Assembly: GCA_017504335.1 (NCBI GenBank)
Contig: JAFVRI010000166.1
Location: 1 to 36,411, forward strand
From: Clostridia bacterium
Lineage (GTDB): Bacteria; Bacillota; Clostridia; Oscillospirales; CAG-272
Direction: 5' to 3'
Length of the DNA: 36,411 nt
The translations under genes were made by a program, and so were the position numbers. The number at the start of each line of letters is the position of its first letter. Position 1 is the first letter of the stretch. Shown here one piece after another: positions 8,861 through 34,295 of this stretch. The notes beneath the pieces are model-generated. The model worked only from the letters and a program-made list of their open reading frames with translations. It was not told the DNA's origin and searched no databases.

Positions 8861-9041
8861 CGTTACGACTCGTTTTTTCCGCTTTTAGAAAAAGCTTGGC
8901 AAAACTTTCATACAAATTATGACTTGACCCTTGTACATTCTTCTCGTCATGATTTTGCAGTAAAATATTGTTTTTCTCTAAGGTAGAAAACCATCGGACG
9001 GCTACACGTGCTACGCACAGCCACCGATGGTTTTCTTTTTG
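8861..9041 (+). repeat. family T repeat, copy A (3' of the nagA-like gene)
   Basis: It starts 7 nt after the stop. The order is TTACGAC (8863-8869), palindrome GCTTTTAGAAAAAGC, GCAAAACTTTCATACAAATTATGACTTGACCCTTGTACATTCTTCTCGTCATGATTT, then TTTCTCTAAGGTAGAAAACCATCGG...CCGATGGTTTTC TTTTT (hairpin 8986-9035 plus T-run). Confidence 0.85.
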
Positions 9042-9050
9042 TATTTATAA

Positions 9051-9203
9051 CGGGACGTCGAGGACGTCGTCCCCTACAAGATAGAAATTATTTGTCGTAC
9101 ATTCTCCTAAATAAACAAAGGCATACCCGATTGCTTATTTATTTAGGAAAATTGCATTGGCATCCCTCTATCATTTGTAGGGGGCGACGTCCTCGACGCC
9201 CCG
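9051..9203 (+). repeat. family H long-hairpin element, copy H1 (MITE-like)
   Basis: 27-nt terminal inverted repeats: CGGGACGTCGAGGACGTCGTCCCCTAC (9051-9077) and GTAGGGGGCGACGTCCTCGACGCCCCG (9177-9203). An inner inverted repeat is TCCTAAATAAA...TTTATTTAGGA. The element begins about 10 nt after the T-run of copy A. Confidence 0.8.
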
Positions 9204-9302
9204 AGAAACAATCGCATCCCGTTTTCTTCTTGTGTGAATCCTTCTGTGAAAATGCTCCCTCCGGGAGGGAGCTGAAAGCGACTGAGGGAGAGTGCGATCA
9301 CA
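9204..9302. repeat. GC-rich hairpin block
   Basis: Perfect palindrome GCTCCCTCCGGGAGGGAGC at 9254-9272, followed by GAAAGCGACTGAGGGAGAGTG. The segment GAAACAATCGCATCCC (9206-9221) recurs inverted at 18199-18214 next to copy H2. Confidence 0.5.
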
Positions 9303-12181: not shown

Positions 12182-12351
12182 CTTACGACTAATATTAGGT
12201 CGCTTTTGAAAAAGCTCCGCAAAACTTTTCATACAAGGATATTTTTATTTTTTATTCACGTTCCTTGTCTTTGTGTCACGTGTAAACGTATGGTTTCTCT
12301 CTAAGGTGGAAATCCGTCGGACCCTCTGGCGTCCCGACGGATTTCTTTTTG
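12182..12351 (+). repeat. family T repeat, copy B1 (3' of the GH20-like gene)
   Basis: TTACGAC at 12183-12189, 6 nt after the stop. GTCGCTTTTGAAAAAGCTCCGCAAAACTTTTCATACAA follows, then the subtype-2 core ATATTTTTATTTTTTATTCACGTTCCTTGTCTTTGTG, then TCTCTAAGGTGGAAATCCGTCGG...CCGACGGATTTC TTTTT (12309-12351). Confidence 0.85.
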
Positions 12352-12360
12352 TTTTTTTTT

Positions 12361-12580
12361 AATAAAAAAGAAAACCATCGGTGTCCTCCTTCGCTTCGCT
12401 TCGGGACATATGCTTGCGCATATGTTGGCTCAGCAACGCAGTCCGATGGTTTTCTACCTTAGAGAAAAAACAATATTCTTTTACGCAAATCATGACGAGA
12501 ACAATGCACAAAGGTCAAGCCAAAACAAGTAATAAAGTTTTTGCGCCACTTTTTTCAAAAAGTGGCAAATCGCGTCCCTC
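12361..12580 (-). repeat. family T repeat, copy B2 (3' end of the LacI gene, overlapping its last codons and stop)
   Basis: The minus strand reads GGGACGCGATTTGCCACTTTTTGAAAAAAGTGGCGCAAAAACTTTATTAC...GGCTTGACCTTTGTGCATTGTTCTCGTCATGATTTGCG...TTTTCTCTAAGGTAGAAAACCATCGG-(about 60-nt loop insert)-CCGATGGTTTTC TTTTTT. It lies convergent with copy B1. Confidence 0.85.
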
Positions 12581-13532
12581 TCAGCTCCGATGGCAGGCGG
12601 GTGAATTTTTCGTCGGGGAAAATGCCGGATTCCACGTATCGGTTAGCAAGGGAGAGTGCCTTGCGCATCTGCGTTTCGGGGGATTGAATCGCCAGAGCGG
12701 CGATCCGACCGTTTTCCCAATGCTTTTGTGCCGTAGGGGGAAACTCGAAGCCGATATAGCGGCAATCCATGCGATCCTTTAATTTATAGAGCGCATCGCA
12801 AGCGGAGGCGGTCACACCGTCAAAACCGAAAAGATAATCGAGCTTCTTTCCCGACCCGTCAATGGTTCGGGCAAGGTGGGAGGCATAGAGCGCAGAGGCT
12901 TCGGGTGGATCGATCATGAGGATCTCCGCACAGTCACCGAGCCCATCCGAGAATCCTCGCACACGCTCGATAGCGGAAACGCTTCCGTTGGGGCGAAGAA
13001 CCCCAACTGTCGGGCACTGCCCTCCATCGAACCGCACCGCCTCGGCAAGCGCCAATCCGTCTTCGTAAAAATCCGATCCCACAAAAAAGGTGTTCGGGAT
13101 AGGCGTATATTCGCAAAGCTGAAGAATCAGCATTCTGTCCGCCAGCCGAGCCAGCTCCTCTCGGAGTTCCTCTCCTGGAAGGGCGGCAAGGATCACCGCC
13201 GACACGCCCGCCTCAACAGCTTGGGAGAGACAAAGAGAAACTTCTCGATCTTCCCTGTCACGGTGCATAGCGGAATAGATCTTCAGCGTCTCGTTTTTAC
13301 CGCCCAAAACCGCCAGTGCCCGATTCCAGAAAAACTTGGGATTGTCGGGAAGAATCACACAAATACCGTTTCCTTCCCTGCGAGATGCCAAGGGTTCTCC
13401 CGCGCATACCGCGGCGCGTACCGCCTCTCTCGTCTCGTAATCGACCCCGGGGCAATTTCGGAGAACCTTGCTGACCGTAGAGACACTTTTGCCGCTTCGG
13501 TTGGCAATCTCGGTCATACTTTGTTTACTCAT
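12555..13532 (-). CDS. LacI family transcriptional regulator
   Basis: Track ORF 12555..13622, trimmed to MSKQSMTEIANRSGKSVSTVSKVLRN (LacI-type HTH) at 13532, with a G-rich SD upstream. The rest resembles a periplasmic-binding-protein-like sugar-binding core. Confidence 0.85.
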   Translation of the reverse strand: MSKQSMTEIANRSGKSVSTVSKVLRNCPGVDYETREAVRAAVCAGEPLASRREGNGICVILPDNPKFFWNRALAVLGGKNETLKIYSAMHRDREDREVSLCLSQAVEAGVSAVILAALPGEELREELARLADRMLILQLCEYTPIPNTFFVGSDFYEDGLALAEAVRFDGGQCPTVGVLRPNGSVSAIERVRGFSDGLGDCAEILMIDPPEASALYASHLARTIDGSGKKLDYLFGFDGVTASACDALYKLKDRMDCRYIGFEFPPTAQKHWENGRIAALAIQSPETQMRKALSLANRYVESGIFPDEKFTRLPSELRGTRFATF

Positions 13533-13568
13533 TCCAAAAATCCCCCCTATATTTGTGCATCTTGTACA

Positions 13569-13597
13569 TTGACGGAAAATCTTCCTCATGTTACAAT
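13569..13597 (+). promoter_or_regulatory. promoter of the 433-aa Gfo/Idh/MocA gene
   Basis: TTGACG (13569-13574), a 17-nt spacer, then TGTTACAAT (extended -10, TACAAT at 13592-13597). Confidence 0.55.
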
Positions 13598-13646
13598 GAA
13601 TCCATCGGTTATATCTTATCATAAAAACAAAAAGGAGTCAACCACT

Positions 13647-14948
13647 ATGGAAGCAAAAAACAAAAGACTGAAGATCGGTGTGTTCGGCGGTGCCCGCGGC
13701 TATACCATGATTCAGGTGCTCTTCTCCCATGATAAAGCGGACCTTGTTGCCGTCTGCGATAAGTACGAGCCTCTTCTGGATAAGGTCAAGGAAAAGGCAA
13801 AGGAGTTGGGTACCGAGGTTGCTTGCTACAACAATTTTGAGGATTTTCTGAATCACCCCGAGCTGGATGCGGTGGTTCTTGCCAACTATGCCACCGAGCA
13901 CGTTCCCTTTGCCATCCGTTGCATGAAAGCGGGCAAGCACGTGCTTTCCGAGGTACTTCCCTGCGAGACTATGGCAGAGGCAGTGGAGCTGATCGAGGCG
14001 GTAGAAGAGACCGGAATGGTTTATGCCTACGCAGAGAACTATTGCTATATGCAGCATTCCTTTGAGATGTGGCAGAGATACCAATCGGGTGAGATGGGCG
14101 AGGCTCACTATGGCGAGGGCGAGTACATTCACGATTGCTCCTCCATCTGGCCCCGTTGCACCTACGGTGACCGCAATCACTGGAGAAACCGCCTGTACGC
14201 TACCTTCTATTGCACCCACTCCTTGGGTCCGCTGATCGCCATGACAGGTCTGCGCCCCAAGTCGGTGGTCGGCTTTGAGACCAATCCCATCAAGGGCGGA
14301 CTGCTTGCGAAAGGAACCGCAGGTCTTGCGGGAATCGAAATGGTCACCATGGAGAATGGCGCCGTATTCAAGAGCATCCACGGCGGACTCAAGCGTGAGC
14401 CCGGCAGCATCAACTACCAGCTCTATTGCGACAAGGGCGTGATGGAATCGGGCAGACACTTCTCCCGTCATCCCGAGAGAAGCGTAGGCAACTGCCTCTA
14501 CGTCTATAAGGAAGGCGAAGAGCTTTGCAAGGGCGATTGGGAAAAGTACGACCCCGACTGCCAGATCGCCCGTGACGGCAGACTGAAGAGCGGCATCGAA
14601 TCCCACGCAGGCTCCGATTTCTACCCCACCCACTGCTTCATCGAAAAGATTTTGGGCGGTGAGGACGGAAAGTGGTCCATCGACGTCTATCAGGCGGTTG
14701 ACATGGGCATCTGCGGAATCCTTGCTTGGCGTTCGGTATTGAACGGAAATACCCCCATGGCTGTTCCCAATCTTCGCAATCAAGAGGAGCGTGACGCATG
14801 GAGAAACGACCGCGCCTGCACGACCCCCGAGAAGGCGGGCGACGAGCTGCTTCCCATTAGCTCCCACGAAGAGCTTCTGGTAGATCCCGGCGACGAGGTC
14901 TATGAAGAGATCCGCCGTCTGTGGCTGGCAGGAGAAAAGCAGAAATAA
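13647..14948 (+). CDS. Gfo/Idh/MocA family oxidoreductase (433 aa, long C-terminal domain)
   Basis: ATG at 13647 follows AAAGGAG and is in frame with track ORF 12876..14948. The N-terminus is KIGVFGGARGYTMIQ..., with a SEVLP variant of the EKP motif. The upstream 257 codons of the track ORF read through the antisense of the LacI gene and are not credible. Confidence 0.85.
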   Translation: MEAKNKRLKIGVFGGARGYTMIQVLFSHDKADLVAVCDKYEPLLDKVKEKAKELGTEVACYNNFEDFLNHPELDAVVLANYATEHVPFAIRCMKAGKHVLSEVLPCETMAEAVELIEAVEETGMVYAYAENYCYMQHSFEMWQRYQSGEMGEAHYGEGEYIHDCSSIWPRCTYGDRNHWRNRLYATFYCTHSLGPLIAMTGLRPKSVVGFETNPIKGGLLAKGTAGLAGIEMVTMENGAVFKSIHGGLKREPGSINYQLYCDKGVMESGRHFSRHPERSVGNCLYVYKEGEELCKGDWEKYDPDCQIARDGRLKSGIESHAGSDFYPTHCFIEKILGGEDGKWSIDVYQAVDMGICGILAWRSVLNGNTPMAVPNLRNQEERDAWRNDRACTTPEKAGDELLPISSHEELLVDPGDEVYEEIRRLWLAGEKQK

Positions 14949-14950
14949 AA

Positions 14951-15137
14951 ACGCGGACGCGAGGACGCGGGGGACGCGATTTGTCGCTTTTTAAAAAAAG
15001 CTCCGCAAAAACTTTATTACAGGTTATGGCTTGACCCTTCTGCATTGTCCTCGTCATTGTTTTTGTAAAAGAATATTCTTTTTTCTCTAAGGTGGAAATC
15101 CGTCGGACCCTGCTGCGTCCCGACGGATTTCTTTTTT
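14951..15137 (+). repeat. family T repeat, copy C (3' of the Gfo/Idh/MocA gene)
   Basis: ACGCGGACGCGAGGACGCGGGGGACGCGATTTGTCGCTTTTTAAAAAAAGCTCCGCAAAAACTTTATTACAGGTTATGGCTTGACCCTTCTGCATTGTCCTCGTCATTGTTT...TTTTCTCTAAGGTGGAAATCCGTCGG...CCGACGGATTTC TTTTTT. Confidence 0.85.
15095..15137. terminator. bidirectional intrinsic terminator shared by the Gfo gene (+) and the AraC gene (-)
   Basis: The GAAATCCGTCGG...CCGACGGATTTC hairpin is followed by TTTTTT. The convergent AraC stop codon lies at 15150..15148. Confidence 0.75.
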
Positions 15138-15147
15138 CATGATCGAT

Positions 15148-18198: not shown

Positions 18199-18216
18199 GG
18201 GGATGCGATTGTTTCA

Positions 18217-18365
18217 CGGGACGTCGAGGACGTCGTCCCCTACGAGACAGATGTGATTTATCGCACATTTTTCTATTGAAACAAAGGGATTTTCGATTGT
18301 TTATTTAGAAAAATTGCAAAGGCTTTCCACCATCATTTGTAGGGGACGACGTCCTCGACGTTCCG
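18217..18365 (+). repeat. family H long-hairpin element, copy H2 (diverged)
   Basis: The arms are CGGGACGTCGAGGACGTCGTCCCCTAC (18217-18243) and GTAGGGGACGACGTCCTCGACGTTCCG (18339-18365). The interior is collinear with H1 but more diverged. The element is wedged between two terminator hairpins. Confidence 0.75.
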
Positions 18366-18580
18366 TTACAAATAAAGAAATCCGTGGTGGCGTAGCAGCC
18401 GTCCACGGATTTCTACCTTAGAGAAAGAACATTCGCTCACATCCCAAACAAAGACGAGAAACGTGAACAAAAATAAAAATATTTTTGTATGAAAGTTTTT
18501 GCGGAGCTTTTTTCAAAAAGCGACAAAAAGTTTTTGCCAAGCTTTTTTCAAAAAGCGTAAAAATTCCAGTCGTAACTAAT
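18366..18580 (-). repeat. family T repeat, copy D (3' of cysS), with a tandemly duplicated head palindrome
   Basis: The minus strand reads TGA ATTAG TTACGAC TGGAATTTTTACGCTTTTTGAAAAAAGCTTGGCAAAAACTTTTTGTCGCTTTTTGAAAAAAGCTCCGCAAAAACTTTCATACAAAAATATTTTTATTTTTGTTCACGTTTCTCGTCTTTGT...TTTCTCTAAGGTAGAAATCCGTGG...CCACGGATTTC TTTATTT. The palindromes lie at 18506-18521 and 18541-18556. Confidence 0.85.
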
Positions 18581-29249: not shown

Positions 29250-29392
29250 GATTTTTGTCGCTTTTTGGAAAATTCTTACGACTCATATTTTTGTCGCTTT
29301 TGAAAAAGCTCCGCAAAACTTTCATACAAATTATGGCTTGGGGAACATAGACTCCTCGTCCTTGTGTAGGATGTAAGTGATTCTTTTTTTAT
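29250..29392 (+). repeat. family T repeat, copy E1 (no upstream gene; head duplicated, tail missing)
   Basis: TTTTTGTCGCTTTTTGGAAAA, then TTACGAC (29276-29282), then ATTTTTGTCGCTTTTGAAAAAGCTCCGCAAAACTTTCATACAAATTATGGCTTG...CCTCGTCCTTGTGTAGGATG. The copy is truncated at a T-run where copy H3 begins. Confidence 0.75.
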
Positions 29393-29394
29393 AA

Positions 29395-29543
29395 CGGGGC
29401 GTCGAGGACGTCGCCCCCTACAAGAGATAGAGAGATGCCTTTGTAATTTTCCTAAATATGCAATCGGATATACGTTTGTTTATTTAGGAGAATGCGCGAC
29501 AAATTCCATCTATCCCGTAGGGGGCGACGTCCTCGACGCCCCG
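29395..29543 (-). repeat. family H long-hairpin element, copy H3 (interior inverted relative to H1)
   Basis: The arms are CGGGGCGTCGAGGACGTCGCCCCCTAC (29395-29421) and GTAGGGGGCGACGTCCTCGACGCCCCG (29517-29543), extended by TATAA/TTATA. The reverse complement of the interior aligns with H1 (GATAGA..ATTTGTCG..CATTCTCCTAAATAAACAAA...CCGATTGC.TATTTAGGAAAATT.CA..GGCATC.CTCTATC). Confidence 0.8.
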
Positions 29544-29547
29544 TTAT

Positions 29548-29722
29548 AAAAAGAGAAGAAATCCGTCGGGACGCAGCAGGGTCCGACGGATTTCTACCTT
29601 AGAGAAAAAAGAATCGCTCATATCCTACACAAAGACGAGGAACGTGTAGTAAGGTAAAGAAATAATTTGTATGAAAAGTTTTGCGGAGCTTTTTTCAAAA
29701 GCGACCAAAATCCATCCCTCAA
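29548..29722 (-). repeat. family T repeat, copy E2 (3' of the PocR/AraC gene)
   Basis: The minus strand reads TAG TTAGTTGAGGGATGGATTTTGGTCGCTTTTGAAAAAAGCTCCGCAAAACTTTTCATACAAATTATTTC...ACGTTCCTCGTCTTTGTGTAGGATATG...TTTTCTCTAAGGTAGAAATCCGTCGGACCCTGCTGCGTCCCGACGGATTTC. The hairpin is identical to that of copy C. Confidence 0.85.
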
Positions 29723-31819: not shown

Positions 31820-32722
31820 ATGTCCTGGTTCCTTTTGGTTTTGATGATCGTGGTCTATACCCTGCAGTCCTTTCTGACACGGCTCTATTCCGATCACTAT
31901 CCGGGCAAGCCCGAGATGGCTGCCCCTGTGTTTACGGTAGTCAGCGGCATTGCCGTGGTGATCGCGTCCTTCGCGGTCAGCGGCTTTCACTTTGACATGT
32001 CCTGGCAGACCCTTGTATTCGGTGCCGTGGGCGGCATTGCCATGGTGATCTACAACGAATCGATCATGAAGTCGGTGCAGAGCGGACCCTATTCGGTCAT
32101 GATGGTGTTCCAGATCTCGGGTGCCATTATCATTCCCATTTTCTCGGATGCGCTGATCTTTGGTGCCAACATAACCCCCGTGCAGATCATCTGCATTTCG
32201 GTGGTACTGGTTTCGGTCTATCTGGTGTCCAAGAAGGACGGAGAGGAGAAATGCAAAAAGGGCTTTTGGGTTGCCTCCTTTGCCCTCGGCATTGCCAACG
32301 GTGTCTACGGAAGCCTTCTGAACATCCAGCAGGGAATCACGGGTCCTGAGGAGAAGGAAGAAATGCTGGCGGTGATCTTCGGTGTGGCGGTGATCATTTC
32401 CGCGACACGGCTCGCCATTGGGCAAAGACGGGAATTTTTCTCGGTCATGAAGCAAACGAGGATCTCGGCGATCTATCTGATCGTCTGCTCAGCGGTGGTA
32501 GTAGCGGGACTTTTCCTTCTGACCGCCCTGATCGGCATGATGGATCTGGCGATCCTTTATACCTTTGACAGCTCCAGTATGCTGGTGCTGAGTGTGATCT
32601 GCTCCTGCATTTTCCTGAAGGAGAAGATCTCCACCCTGAATATCATCGGATGCGTGACCATGTGCGCGGCGCTCATCTGTATGTCAGGCTGGGATTGGTT
32701 TGTCAGTATGTTTGCGAAGTAA
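31820..32722 (+). CDS. DMT superfamily (EamA-like) permease
   Basis: 300 aa with about 10 hydrophobic helices in two similar halves and no soluble domain. Confidence 0.7.
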   Translation: MSWFLLVLMIVVYTLQSFLTRLYSDHYPGKPEMAAPVFTVVSGIAVVIASFAVSGFHFDMSWQTLVFGAVGGIAMVIYNESIMKSVQSGPYSVMMVFQISGAIIIPIFSDALIFGANITPVQIICISVVLVSVYLVSKKDGEEKCKKGFWVASFALGIANGVYGSLLNIQQGITGPEEKEEMLAVIFGVAVIISATRLAIGQRREFFSVMKQTRISAIYLIVCSAVVVAGLFLLTALIGMMDLAILYTFDSSSMLVLSVICSCIFLKEKISTLNIIGCVTMCAALICMSGWDWFVSMFAK

Positions 32723-32740
32723 GAAAATAAACGGAAAGAA

Positions 32741-32767
32741 CCGCCCTCCTCGGAGGGCGGTTTTCTT
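32741..32767 (+). terminator. intrinsic terminator after the DMT permease gene
   Basis: CCGCCCTCC-tc-GGAGGGCGG followed by TTTTCTT. Confidence 0.75.
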
Positions 32768-32768
32768 G

Positions 32769-33060
32769 GTTGGCTCCTCAGCCGCGAAGGAGCTTGACGC
32801 ATCGAAAAAAACGCCAACCGATTCTCATACGGAGAGCATCCCCCATCAAACAGGCTATTCCTTATCCGTAGTGGCGTTCTGCGAGCGCCCGCGAGCGAAC
32901 ACAGTTCGCCCCTACGGAATCCTCAAAAGCCTCGCCCTTCGGGAGAGGTGGCAGGCGAAGCCTGACGGAGAGGGAGGAACATATCCCCTCTCACCCGCTA
33001 CGCGGGAGCTCTCCCCAAGGGAGAGCCTTTGGTTTCACGGCGGACGGGGAATGAGCAATT
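32769..33060. repeat. GC-rich hairpin-dense intergenic block
   Basis: A series of short GC hairpins: GGTTGGC..GCTCCT-cagccgcg-AAGGAGC..GCCAACC; CCGTAGTGGCG...CGCCCCTACGG; CCTCGCCC-ttcg-GGGAGAGG; GAGAGGG...CCCTCTC; CTCTCCC-caa-GGGAGAG. It shares TCGCCCCTAC with the family H arms and GAGGGAG-type motifs with 9204-9302. Confidence 0.5.
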
Positions 33061-33077
33061 TTCATGGAAATATCCGA

Positions 33078-33106
33078 TTGACATTTTTTGCTCAAAGTGC
33101 TATAAT
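33078..33106 (+). promoter_or_regulatory. promoter of the M20 amidohydrolase gene
   Basis: TTGACA (33078-33083), a 17-nt spacer, then TATAAT (33101-33106). Confidence 0.65.
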
Positions 33107-33140
33107 TGAAAAAAAGATTCTCATGAAGGAAGGCAAAATT

Positions 33141-34295
33141 ATGGAATCCAACGTTGTACGCATCCGCCGTCAGCTTCATATGTACCCCGAGATCGGCTTC
33201 GATCTGCCCCTCACTCTGCAGTTTTTGCGGGACGAGATGGATGCCATCGGGGTAGACTATACAGAGCAATACGGAAAAAGCTCGATCGTCGCCACGGTAA
33301 ACCCCGAAAAAACGAATTTTACCTTAGGCATTCGTGCGGATATGGATGCTCTTCCCATGGAGGAAAAGAATGACGTGCCCTACCGTTCCCGCATCAAGGG
33401 GCAGATGCATGCCTGCGGTCACGATGCCCATACGGCGATCGCTTTGGAGACCCTTCGCCGTGTATACGAGGAGCGGGACGCCATTGGCTGTCGGGTAAAA
33501 TTCCTGTTTCAGCCCTCCGAGGAGGCAGGACCGTCGGGTGCCATGCTCATGGCGGAGGACGGTGTCATGGATGACATCGACTGCATCGTGGCACTTCATT
33601 GCGATACCACCATCCCCGTGGGCAAGGTTGCCGTGACCGAGGGGGCGCAAAATGCCATCAGCGACGGTTTTACCTTGGTATTCCACGGAAAAAGCTCCCA
33701 CGCGGGCAATCAGGAAAAGGGAATTGACGCCATTATGATGGCGGTAAAGGCATATACGCAGATCGAATTTATGATCGCCAAGGATTTTTCCGCCAAGGTT
33801 CCCATGATCTTCAACGTGGGTGCCATTCACGGCGGTGTGACCAATAACATTTTAGCGGAGTCGTGTACCATGTTCTGCACCCTTCGTTCTCATACCGAGG
33901 AAACCGCCGCCTATGCGCTGGACAAGATCCGTCGAATCGGTGAATCGGTTGCCGAGCTGGAGGGCGGTCGCTTTGAAATGATCCCCAACAAGCACTATCC
34001 CATCGTCTACAACGACGCGGGTATGGTGCAACGGATCCGCCGTGCCGCTTGCGTAGTGGTGGGTGCGGACAACCTCGGCGAAAACAAGCGCTCTATGGGC
34101 GGTGAGGATTTCTCCTACTTCGCCATGAAAAAGCCCGGTGGATATTTCCGTCTCGGTGTCCGCAATGAGGAAAAGGGGATCGTCAACGGGGTGCATCACG
34201 ACAATTTCGATCTGGACGAGGCTGCCCTCGAGATCGGGGTCCGGATGTTCCTGCGGATCATTCGGGACGCGGGGGACGCGATCAGCCGTTTTTAA
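33141..34295 (+). CDS. M20D family amidohydrolase (N-acyl-amino-acid/hippurate hydrolase-like)
   Basis: ATG at 33141 follows GGAAGG (alternative ATG at 33123). The sequence runs IRRQLHMYPEIGF...GIRADMDALPM...QMHACGHDAHTA...FQPSEE...GGEDFSYF. Confidence 0.88.
   Translation: MESNVVRIRRQLHMYPEIGFDLPLTLQFLRDEMDAIGVDYTEQYGKSSIVATVNPEKTNFTLGIRADMDALPMEEKNDVPYRSRIKGQMHACGHDAHTAIALETLRRVYEERDAIGCRVKFLFQPSEEAGPSGAMLMAEDGVMDDIDCIVALHCDTTIPVGKVAVTEGAQNAISDGFTLVFHGKSSHAGNQEKGIDAIMMAVKAYTQIEFMIAKDFSAKVPMIFNVGAIHGGVTNNILAESCTMFCTLRSHTEETAAYALDKIRRIGESVAELEGGRFEMIPNKHYPIVYNDAGMVQRIRRAACVVVGADNLGENKRSMGGEDFSYFAMKKPGGYFRLGVRNEEKGIVNGVHHDNFDLDEAALEIGVRMFLRIIRDAGDAISRF

Follow-up and report, generated by a model that had tools for sequence, protein, structure and literature searches.

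The window analysed here is a stretch of 36,411 nucleotides (contig JAFVRI010000166.1) belonging to the 2.05-Mb metagenome-assembled genome (MAG) of a gut Clostridia bacterium, hereafter G000. Its minus strand carries a gene coding for a LacI-family regulator, which is located between a GH20 gene on one side and, on the other, a divergent gene for a Gfo/Idh/MocA oxidoreductase followed by an AraC-type gene. At its 3′ end the LacI gene runs into a copy of an abundant interspersed repeat, designated family T, which supplies the last codons of the regulator together with its stop codon. The coding sequence was taken as 12555–13532 on the minus strand (325 aa followed by TGA), since all 26 homologues begin at the equivalent of M31 in the longer mechanical open reading frame (ORF; 12555–13622, minus strand), which makes the ATG at 13532 the probable start. 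The protein contains the domains PF00356 (LacI helix-turn-helix, 33.7 bits) and PF13407 (Peripla_BP_4, 40.7 bits), both above cut-off, and thus combines the N-terminal helix-turn-helix with the periplasmic-binding-protein-like sugar-binding domain, as is characteristic of the LacI/PurR family.

The 3′ codons of the gene read ..CCA TCG GAG CTG AGA GGG ACG CGA TTT GCC ACT TTT TGA, so that the protein ends in ELRGTRFATF. A preliminary description of this DNA had attributed these last codons to a repeat, which is borne out by two comparisons. The 24-nt string GGGACGCGATTTGCCACTTTTTGA (12578..12555, minus strand) is found again at 14971–14994 on the plus strand with 3 mismatches, while 0 such matches are expected by chance, and it opens a 138-nt inverted repeat with 86% identity between the copy behind LacI and copy C behind the oxidoreductase gene. 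In addition, the end of LacI (12340–12640) was used as a BLAST query against the assembly to which the window belongs, which resulted in 85 other hits, none of them starting upstream of 12580. Sixteen of these start at 12577–12580, namely in the unit GGGACGCG, and 38 more between there and the stop codon, i.e. the homology of 54 copies in all begins before the stop; the best matches extend for about 180–225 nt at 83–89% identity. As dozens of copies are homologous to this region, the final seven codons together with the stop lie inside a multi-copy interspersed element. The span of 12555–12585 originally given to the repeat was slightly too long: the part 12555–12578 stands, but the end at 12585 takes in two or three native codons (E316, L317 and R318).

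The stop codon had also been placed inside the head palindrome of the repeat, and this agrees with the RNA fold, in which GCCACUUUU and AAAAGUGGC form a hairpin of 9–10 bp with a 4-nt loop holding UGA. Read on the plus strand, the palindrome is GCCACTTTTTTCAAAAAGTGGC, with the stop appearing as TCA (12555–12557) at its center. By its letters the copy behind LacI is an ordinary full-length family T member (Table 1), and its predicted fold includes a GC-containing hairpin followed by a U-run, downstream of the gene and co-directional with it, as expected of an intrinsic terminator. Going by this fold, LacI transcription most likely ends at the tail hairpin about 100–190 nt past the stop codon.

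Table 1 Features of the LacI locus, the neighboring family T copies and the other genes read into the repeat. Positions refer to the window unless a contig is given.
Feature	Position	Strand	Description
Repeat-derived last seven codons (G T R F A T F) and TGA stop	12555..12578, +/- 2 nt	minus	24-mer match and BLAST
Last native codons S315 E316 L317 R318	12579..12590	minus	homologue conservation ends here (..LPSE[L/I]..)
Head palindrome GCCACTTTTT-GA-AAAAAGTGGC, stop codon in loop	12545..12566	minus	letters and RNA fold
Full family T copy behind LacI	12361..12578	minus	one GGGACGCGA unit, head, middle part, long-loop tail hairpin and U-run; BLAST, fold
Tail hairpin (GAAAACCAUCGG...CCGAUGGUUUUC), then UUUUUU	12361..12458	minus	fold; probably the intrinsic terminator for LacI
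Gfo/Idh/MocA oxidoreductase gene, 433 aa	13647..14948	+	divergent; syntenic partner of LacI at all orthologous loci examined
Family T copy C, behind Gfo gene	14951..15140	+	inverted pair with the LacI copy; common junction GGGACGCGATTTG
Family T copy B1, behind GH20 gene	12182..12351	+	TTACGAC-type 5′ module; tail hairpin common to sister species G005
RNase H	C183:6020-6493		tail ..FLGREDAGDAGRF / ..FADSFLGREDAGDAGRF (..GREDAGDAGRF); ends at head-loop TGA
Glycosidase-like ORF, 490 aa	C192:1691-3163		tail ..AEDAGDAGDAGDAGDAGRF; ends at head-loop TGA
Diacylglycerol-kinase-like ORF	C250:704-1690		tail ..EETRETRVAF; ends at head-loop TGA
M20 amidohydrolase ORF	32700-34295	+	tail ..IRDAGDAISRF
M20 tail	34262..34295	+	last codons in two GGGACGCG units; TAA at center of degenerate head palindrome

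About 100 family T heads, a lower bound, are present in the genome. The elements consist of a 5′ module, an AT-rich head hairpin (GTCGCTTTTTGAAAAAAGC, then TCCGCAAAACTTT), a middle part that is conserved (..ATGGCTTGACC..CTCCTCGTCAT...) and a tail hairpin resembling a terminator (GAAATCCGTCGGAC..GTCCCGACGGATTTC, then a T-run). The 5′ module is of two types, either a tandem array of 1–8 (R)GGAYGCG units (53 copies) or a TTAGTTACGAC module, a piece of the TTAGTTACGACTAAT type (27 copies). The arrays are specific to the head, since 48 of the 60 arrays found directly precede one. Just upstream of about 85 copies a long co-directional ORF comes to its end, and the distance from the stop codon to the array was scored for the 50 array-type copies with an upstream ORF of at least 80 aa: counted from the stop codon's end, the array starts at -1 to +3 nt in 31 of them and at 10 nt or less in 41, typical junctions being taaGGACGCG, tgaGGACGCG and tagGACGCG. 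Read directly, GGAYGCG units of the canonical form are free of stop codons in every frame (a few copies carry the variant unit GGACGCTGA), whereas the center of the head palindrome reads TGA, TAG or TAA; therefore an ORF that arrives without a preceding stop reads through the array to the stop at the center of the head.

The arms of the LacI head differ from those of the C190 variant by paired changes (GCCGC/GCGGC to GCCAC/GTGGC), and its perfect stem is the longest among the heads read. There is also a sister subfamily with the variant head CTTTTCTTTTRAAAAAGAAAAGTARGCAAAA, of which 39 of the 61 genomes examined in the genus contain multiple copies, as many as 33 in one genome (G019, G042, G058 and others), the reversed pattern used as a control giving 0 hits. 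As the same stem is formed with entirely different arms, the hairpin has been kept, which amounts to covariation at the family level. No Rfam family was matched in a scan of the whole window, and no description of family T was found by literature searches, which were made by topic and not with the sequence of the element.

The LacI protein was aligned with the 26 homologues, which share 40–62% identity with it. Conservation runs to ..FPDxKFxxLPS(E), with S315 being nearly invariant, and the tails beyond S315/E316 are 6–25 residues long and mutually unrelated; the tail of 10 residues after S315 in the present protein is within this normal range. Several homologues continue as SE(L/I)(L/I/R), for instance SELRKT and SEILRGAEA before the stop, so the residues ELR are plausibly native and the switch from native to repeat sequence falls at R318/G319, in agreement with the boundary seen in the DNA. 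The heptapeptide GTRFATF is absent from all 26 aligned homologues. Alignment with orthologues lacking the repeat had been proposed as a check, and it places the end of similarity at S315/E316, 2–3 codons before the repeat part; the observation named in advance as contrary evidence, namely repeat-free orthologues with the same C-terminus, was not made, since the element-free orthologues that are followed by a plain terminator or by a convergent gene (P0005, P0007 and, from the same genus, G002 and G021) have other tails. The regulator is most likely functional despite its changed tail.

Among the six closest homologues with contigs read, all retain the divergent Gfo/Idh/MocA partner (complete in four and cut by the contig end in L019 and L020), and the six loci are therefore orthologous. 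Three of the six carry a related array or head flush with the stop codon or over it. At the P0002 locus the stop codon is followed by 4 nt and GGGGACACGAGGGGACGCGGGGGATGCGATGGGGACGCGC, with the contig ending within the array, and at the P0004 locus by 4 nt and the variant head ACTTTTCTTTTGAAAAAGAAAAGTAGGCAAAAG; in P0006 the ORF runs through the same variant head (TAC TTT TCT TTT AAA AAA GAA AAG TAA), so that the protein ends in YFSFKKEK. If about 5–10% of genes carry an element, it is unlikely that four of seven orthologues would have one at the same gene end; either the association of LacI with the element is old, which may be the case, or this gene end is favored. A small deletion removing the stop codon relative to the P0002 locus (CTGA...TGATAG vs CTGAGAGGG) was also considered and dropped, the alignment being too uncertain at 62% protein identity.

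The overlap at LacI is an ordinary tolerated one and one of at least five in this genome, the others being those of the RNase H, glycosidase-like, diacylglycerol-kinase-like and M20 amidohydrolase genes (Table 1). F is the last residue of all five proteins, and four have the ending ..RF or ..AF. The RNase H gene, rnhA, allows the origin of such a tail to be followed. Thirty-seven RNase H orthologues from the genus match the 156-residue G000 protein only to residues 144–151 (..FADSF being residues 140–144), the exceptions being two cut-off matches and that of G005, which runs past its stop codon into the element. Four orthologues were read at the DNA level and end approximately in ..FADSF(x)(x), those of G042, G024 and G020 ending in ..FADSFSE, ..FADSL and ..FADSFF with no element behind them. 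G005, the nearest species (92%), possesses an element at the same rnhA site with an in-frame TAG in its GATTAGATTAG 5′ module (GTGAGAGATTAGATTAGTT..), and in that place G000 has the stop-free array GGACGCGAGGACGCGGGGGACGCGG, so that reading continues to the loop TGA. Since the element is found behind rnhA in both G000 and G005, it was resident before the split of the two species, and the new tail was made by turnover of the 5′ module.

The leuS gene was compared as well. In each of the six species aligned at the DNA level its C-terminus ..NIVV(R/K) is complete and stops at the same codon, and in G000 and G005 the array begins on the base right after the native stop codon. A place exactly behind a native stop is thus open to the element, which overlaps the coding sequence only where the tail tolerates it. 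In G006 (L057), a species without the element at this gene, the leuS stop codon is followed by GGAC (tgaGGACAAAAAGCGG), i.e. by the first four bases of an array unit, which may be due to chance or may hint at an insertion target. Placement of the first unit on the stop codon occurs even behind leuS, an essential gene with a fixed C-terminus, and we regard it as conceivable, if rather unlikely, that the first unit is tied mechanistically to the stop codon, through insertion or array growth targeted to translation stops. If this were true, the read-ins of LacI, RNase H, M20 and the others would be by-products, and family T would be a portable module of stop codon, 3′ untranslated region and terminator peculiar to one genus of gut Clostridia.

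As for its distribution, the family T head was found in 14 of the 24 species sampled from the genus, whereas the 16 other families of the order that were sampled yielded none. Presence or absence of the element differs between species at rnhA, leuS and GH20, and copy C is 99% identical over 138 nt to an unlinked copy on contig C134. At the GH20 locus of G005, 9 nt separate the GH20 stop codon from a solo tail hairpin, after which comes the AraC-type gene in convergent orientation. Between the same two genes G000 additionally has copy B1's head and middle part, then the LacI copy with LacI and Gfo, and lastly the 5′ part of copy C. The segment in question, found only in G000, is flanked by 57-nt direct repeats of the tail hairpin (12294–12350 and 15080–15136) which are 93% identical. 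The solo hairpin of G005 (L053, G005:C78, 5860–5925) corresponds to positions 12306–12350 and 15092–15136 of the window and stands alone as an ordinary terminator in the sister species. Thus, the tail hairpin is inherited at GH20, while the head and middle part and the LacI–Gfo pair with its inverted copies are variable. The block formed by this pair and the two inverted family T copies that bracket it (12361–15140; 138 nt, 86%) is absent from G005, and it looks as if the pair had been gained or lost by recombination between repeat copies.

These comparisons suggest that family T is modular, a head and middle unit seemingly having been placed between a stop codon and a pre-existing terminator hairpin. 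The preliminary description had called the element a mobile sequence and not an inherited terminator. The family does move or recombine, as follows from its patchy distribution and the 99% identical unlinked copies, but the choice is a false one given that the GH20 tail hairpin is common to the sister species; judging from the sequences compared, family T is both mobile or recombining and inherited. Of an autonomous partner of the IS200/IS605 or RAYT type, only a 51-residue Y1_Tnp fragment was found in G000, an 83%-complete MAG, and the distribution of Y1_Tnp in relatives does not track the repeat.

Taking all this together, LacI overlaps at its 3′ end a copy of an abundant modular gene-end repeat, and it is probable that the native stop codon was lost either when this copy arrived or later. 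The native frame extends to ..PSELR, passes on into one array unit and then the head's left arm (GTRFATF), and stops at the loop TGA; the native stop codon, and probably 2–9 unconserved tail residues, would thereby have been lost. This loss may have accompanied the arrival of the element or, more likely, came later, when slippage, deletion or gene conversion altered the rapidly changing 5′ module of a resident copy, a route modelled on rnhA, where it is visible, and the change would have been tolerated because the LacI tail is unconstrained. The earlier suggestion that the element had inserted into the gene, or recombined with it, and replaced its native C-terminus is accordingly retained in so far as the tail and the stop are derived from the repeat; insertion into the gene is unproven, and at most a few unconserved residues were replaced.

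Several points weigh against this interpretation. The state of LacI before the overlap is not among the sequences found, the closest of which is 62% identical, and the preference for later loss over insertion is drawn from the analogy with rnhA; no orthologue closer than 62% was found in a search of 5.8 billion proteins. The LacI copy is 83–89% identical to copies in its own genome, much more than neutral sequence could have retained while the LacI orthologues diverged. It follows that the copy now present arrived, or underwent conversion, in recent times, and a fresh insertion would account for this just as well. Furthermore, the terminator role of the tail hairpin and the tailed LacI protein are predicted only, and the tail hairpins were not called by a simple terminator scan because of their long loops (about 60 nt in the LacI copy) and became apparent on folding. 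Finally, the genome is an 83%-complete MAG in 276 contigs, and the copy counts are lower bounds. Other searches for LacI relatives gave matches of only 48–49% in 40 relatives and of at most 48% in further genome contigs, two metagenome contig scans for closer orthologues or strains gave no match, and an exact look-up of the protein yielded no contigs other than ones that match the window at 100% or 99.98%, which probably come from the same sample.

The alternative closest to the proposed history is the direct transposition, in this lineage, of a mobile family T copy into the final codons of LacI, with removal of the native tail and stop in one step. The young appearance of the LacI copy (83–89% identity to others), the copies at unlinked loci which are up to 99% identical (C134 and copy C), the patchiness of the family among species and the absence from G005, between the GH20 and AraC-type genes, of the LacI–Gfo pair with both inverted copies are all consistent with such an event. 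It is nevertheless doubtful, because an array or head is already found at the stop codon of three among the six closest LacI orthologues, the read-in of rnhA arose by turnover in a resident copy, the only trace of a transposase partner found in the genome is the 51-residue Y1_Tnp fragment, and there is no empty LacI site among the sequences found. A contribution of selection, with the stop codon in the head hairpin or the ..RF tail tuning LacI through ribosome pausing, mRNA 3′ processing or a C-terminal stability signal, appears improbable. The proposal has in its favor the common ending of the five read-in proteins in F (..RF or ..AF in four) and the LacI head stem, the longest perfect one among the heads read, with its paired arm changes relative to the C190 variant; Liang, Rudd and Deutscher (2015) are also reported to have found that expression in E. 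coli is reduced by REP hairpins lying no more than about 15 nt from a stop codon. On the other hand, the shared ending follows from shared DNA so that selection is not needed, only about 5 of the roughly 85 gene-associated copies are read into, and the proposal itself is drawn from sequence.

It could also be supposed that the contig is chimeric, having been joined inside the repeat, and that the true 3′ end of LacI is different. Family T copies do often lie at contig ends in this MAG and in related ones, i.e. the repeat breaks assemblies, but the stop codon is only 23 nt from unique LacI sequence, within a single read or k-mer, and the same junction is given by two other assemblies, with 99.98% identity over 5479 nt (one mismatch) and 100% over 1778 nt, which makes an artefact very improbable even though both were probably built from the same or a related sample. 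As to the LacI codons being native and merely resembling the repeat by chance, the tail is T-rich, as are several orthologue tails; this explanation was rejected as next to impossible, given the expectation of 0 matches for the 24-mer, the unbroken homology of up to 200 nt beyond the stop codon with dozens of copies and a tail common to no orthologue.

The overlap of a repeat with a gene end is an already known kind of event, harmless here and confined to an unconserved protein tail. In Coxiella burnetii, QMITE1 and QMITE2 overlap the last 1–50 bp of functional genes, and in strain Dugway 33 C-terminal residues of enhC come from a resident QMITE2 through an indel, while in another strain a stop codon precedes the same resident element (PMC5896051). 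Like these elements, family T is an interspersed hairpin-forming repeat that overlaps the 3′ ends of genes and supplies C-terminal residues and a stop codon, with protein length hardly altered. Unlike them, it has a tandem heptamer array and a terminator-like tail, and most of its copies are flush with stop codons; the terminal inverted repeats and direct repeats of QMITEs were not seen in family T. Terminal inverted repeats, which define miniature inverted-repeat transposable elements, do not occur here, in that GGAYGCG or TTACGAC at the 5′ end and the hairpin with its T-run at the 3′ end are not inverted copies of each other and the hairpins are internal only. No target-site duplication is evident at the rnhA, leuS and GH20 junctions, among which there is no clean high-identity pair of empty and filled sites.

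G-rich heptamer tandem repeats, (GGGAATC)n in Xanthomonas and GGGGA(C/T)T in Nostoc, have been described on the coding strand at distances of up to 50 bp from stop codons, with overlap of the stop in some cases (PMC4692102). The family T arrays are likewise intergenic and highly abundant, and their G-rich units, each about 7 nt long, are on the coding strand and mostly near the stop. As a family they conform to the description of such simple sequence repeats, with at least two tandem units of about 7 nt on the coding strand no more than 50 bp from the stop, although the LacI copy has only one unit. They differ in the unit itself (GGAYGCG), in being short (1–8 units) and in being always attached to the head hairpin and the rest of the approximately 170-nt element.

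A further parallel is offered by the REP and BIME sequences of proteobacteria and the RAYT-mobilised REPINs, which have roles in mRNA stability or termination and for which mobilisation by a Y1 transposase is thought likely (PMC2817692). Family T resembles them as a set of about 100 palindromes (more than 100 for REP) located in 3′ untranslated regions and often very close to stop codons, but it does not possess the GTAG/CGTC tag, is directional, measures about 170 nt and contains two different hairpins. No intact Y1 (RAYT/TnpA) gene, and hence no repeat-flanked one, was found in the 83%-complete MAG. PATEs, which are derived from IS200/IS605, have no terminal inverted repeats, a hairpin near either end and, 5′ of the left hairpin, a fixed tetra- or pentanucleotide such as TTAC. 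Of these features, the two hairpins are present in family T, and TTACGAC precedes the head by about 13 nt in 27 copies, with GGAYGCG arrays instead in 53, so the family can be called PATE-like only ambiguously. Enterobacterial small mobile sequences of the RU-1/ERIC type occur inside genes (PMC2759123, PMC2229807), and family T resembles these in being an intergenic repeat that occasionally enters coding sequence and makes new peptide ends, differing from them in sequence, architecture and host (a gut Clostridia MAG).

For LacI itself the consequence seems small, as seven unconserved residues were exchanged and the regulator is probably intact. In practical terms, gene callers and annotators will report odd repeat-coded C-termini such as ..DAGDAGRF in this genus, and MAG contigs break at family T elements. 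The wider interest lies in family T itself, with about 100 copies beginning on stop codons, a putative terminator carried along and a fast turnover of the 5′ module which occasionally rewrites protein ends. The family also brackets accessory gene pairs such as LacI–Gfo, and it offers a convenient natural system for the study of how gene-end repeats find their place and how new C-termini arise.

Two minor observations concern the surroundings of the repeat. A second repeat family of about 170 nt, with GC-rich terminal inverted repeats of 28–41 nt (ACGGGACGTCGAGGACGTCGTCCCCTAC), adjoins family T tails at 9037–9220, 18200–18380 and 29381–29557. At the other end of the LacI gene, the intergenic region between LacI and Gfo (13533–13646) is strongly conserved at the DNA level with positions 1444–1560 of L018, although the proteins are only 62% identical; the stretches in common are TTGACTCCTTTT.GTTTTTATGATARGATATA and TTTTCCGTCAATGTACA..ATGCACAAATA, which probably represent the divergent promoters and a LacI operator (TGTACA..TGCACA). 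The start of the longer ORF at 13622 was rejected as a real one, the 90 nt upstream of the ATG at 13532 being this DNA-conserved promoter/operator region, shared with the P0003 locus, and the spurious N-terminal extension of the ORF is thereby explained.

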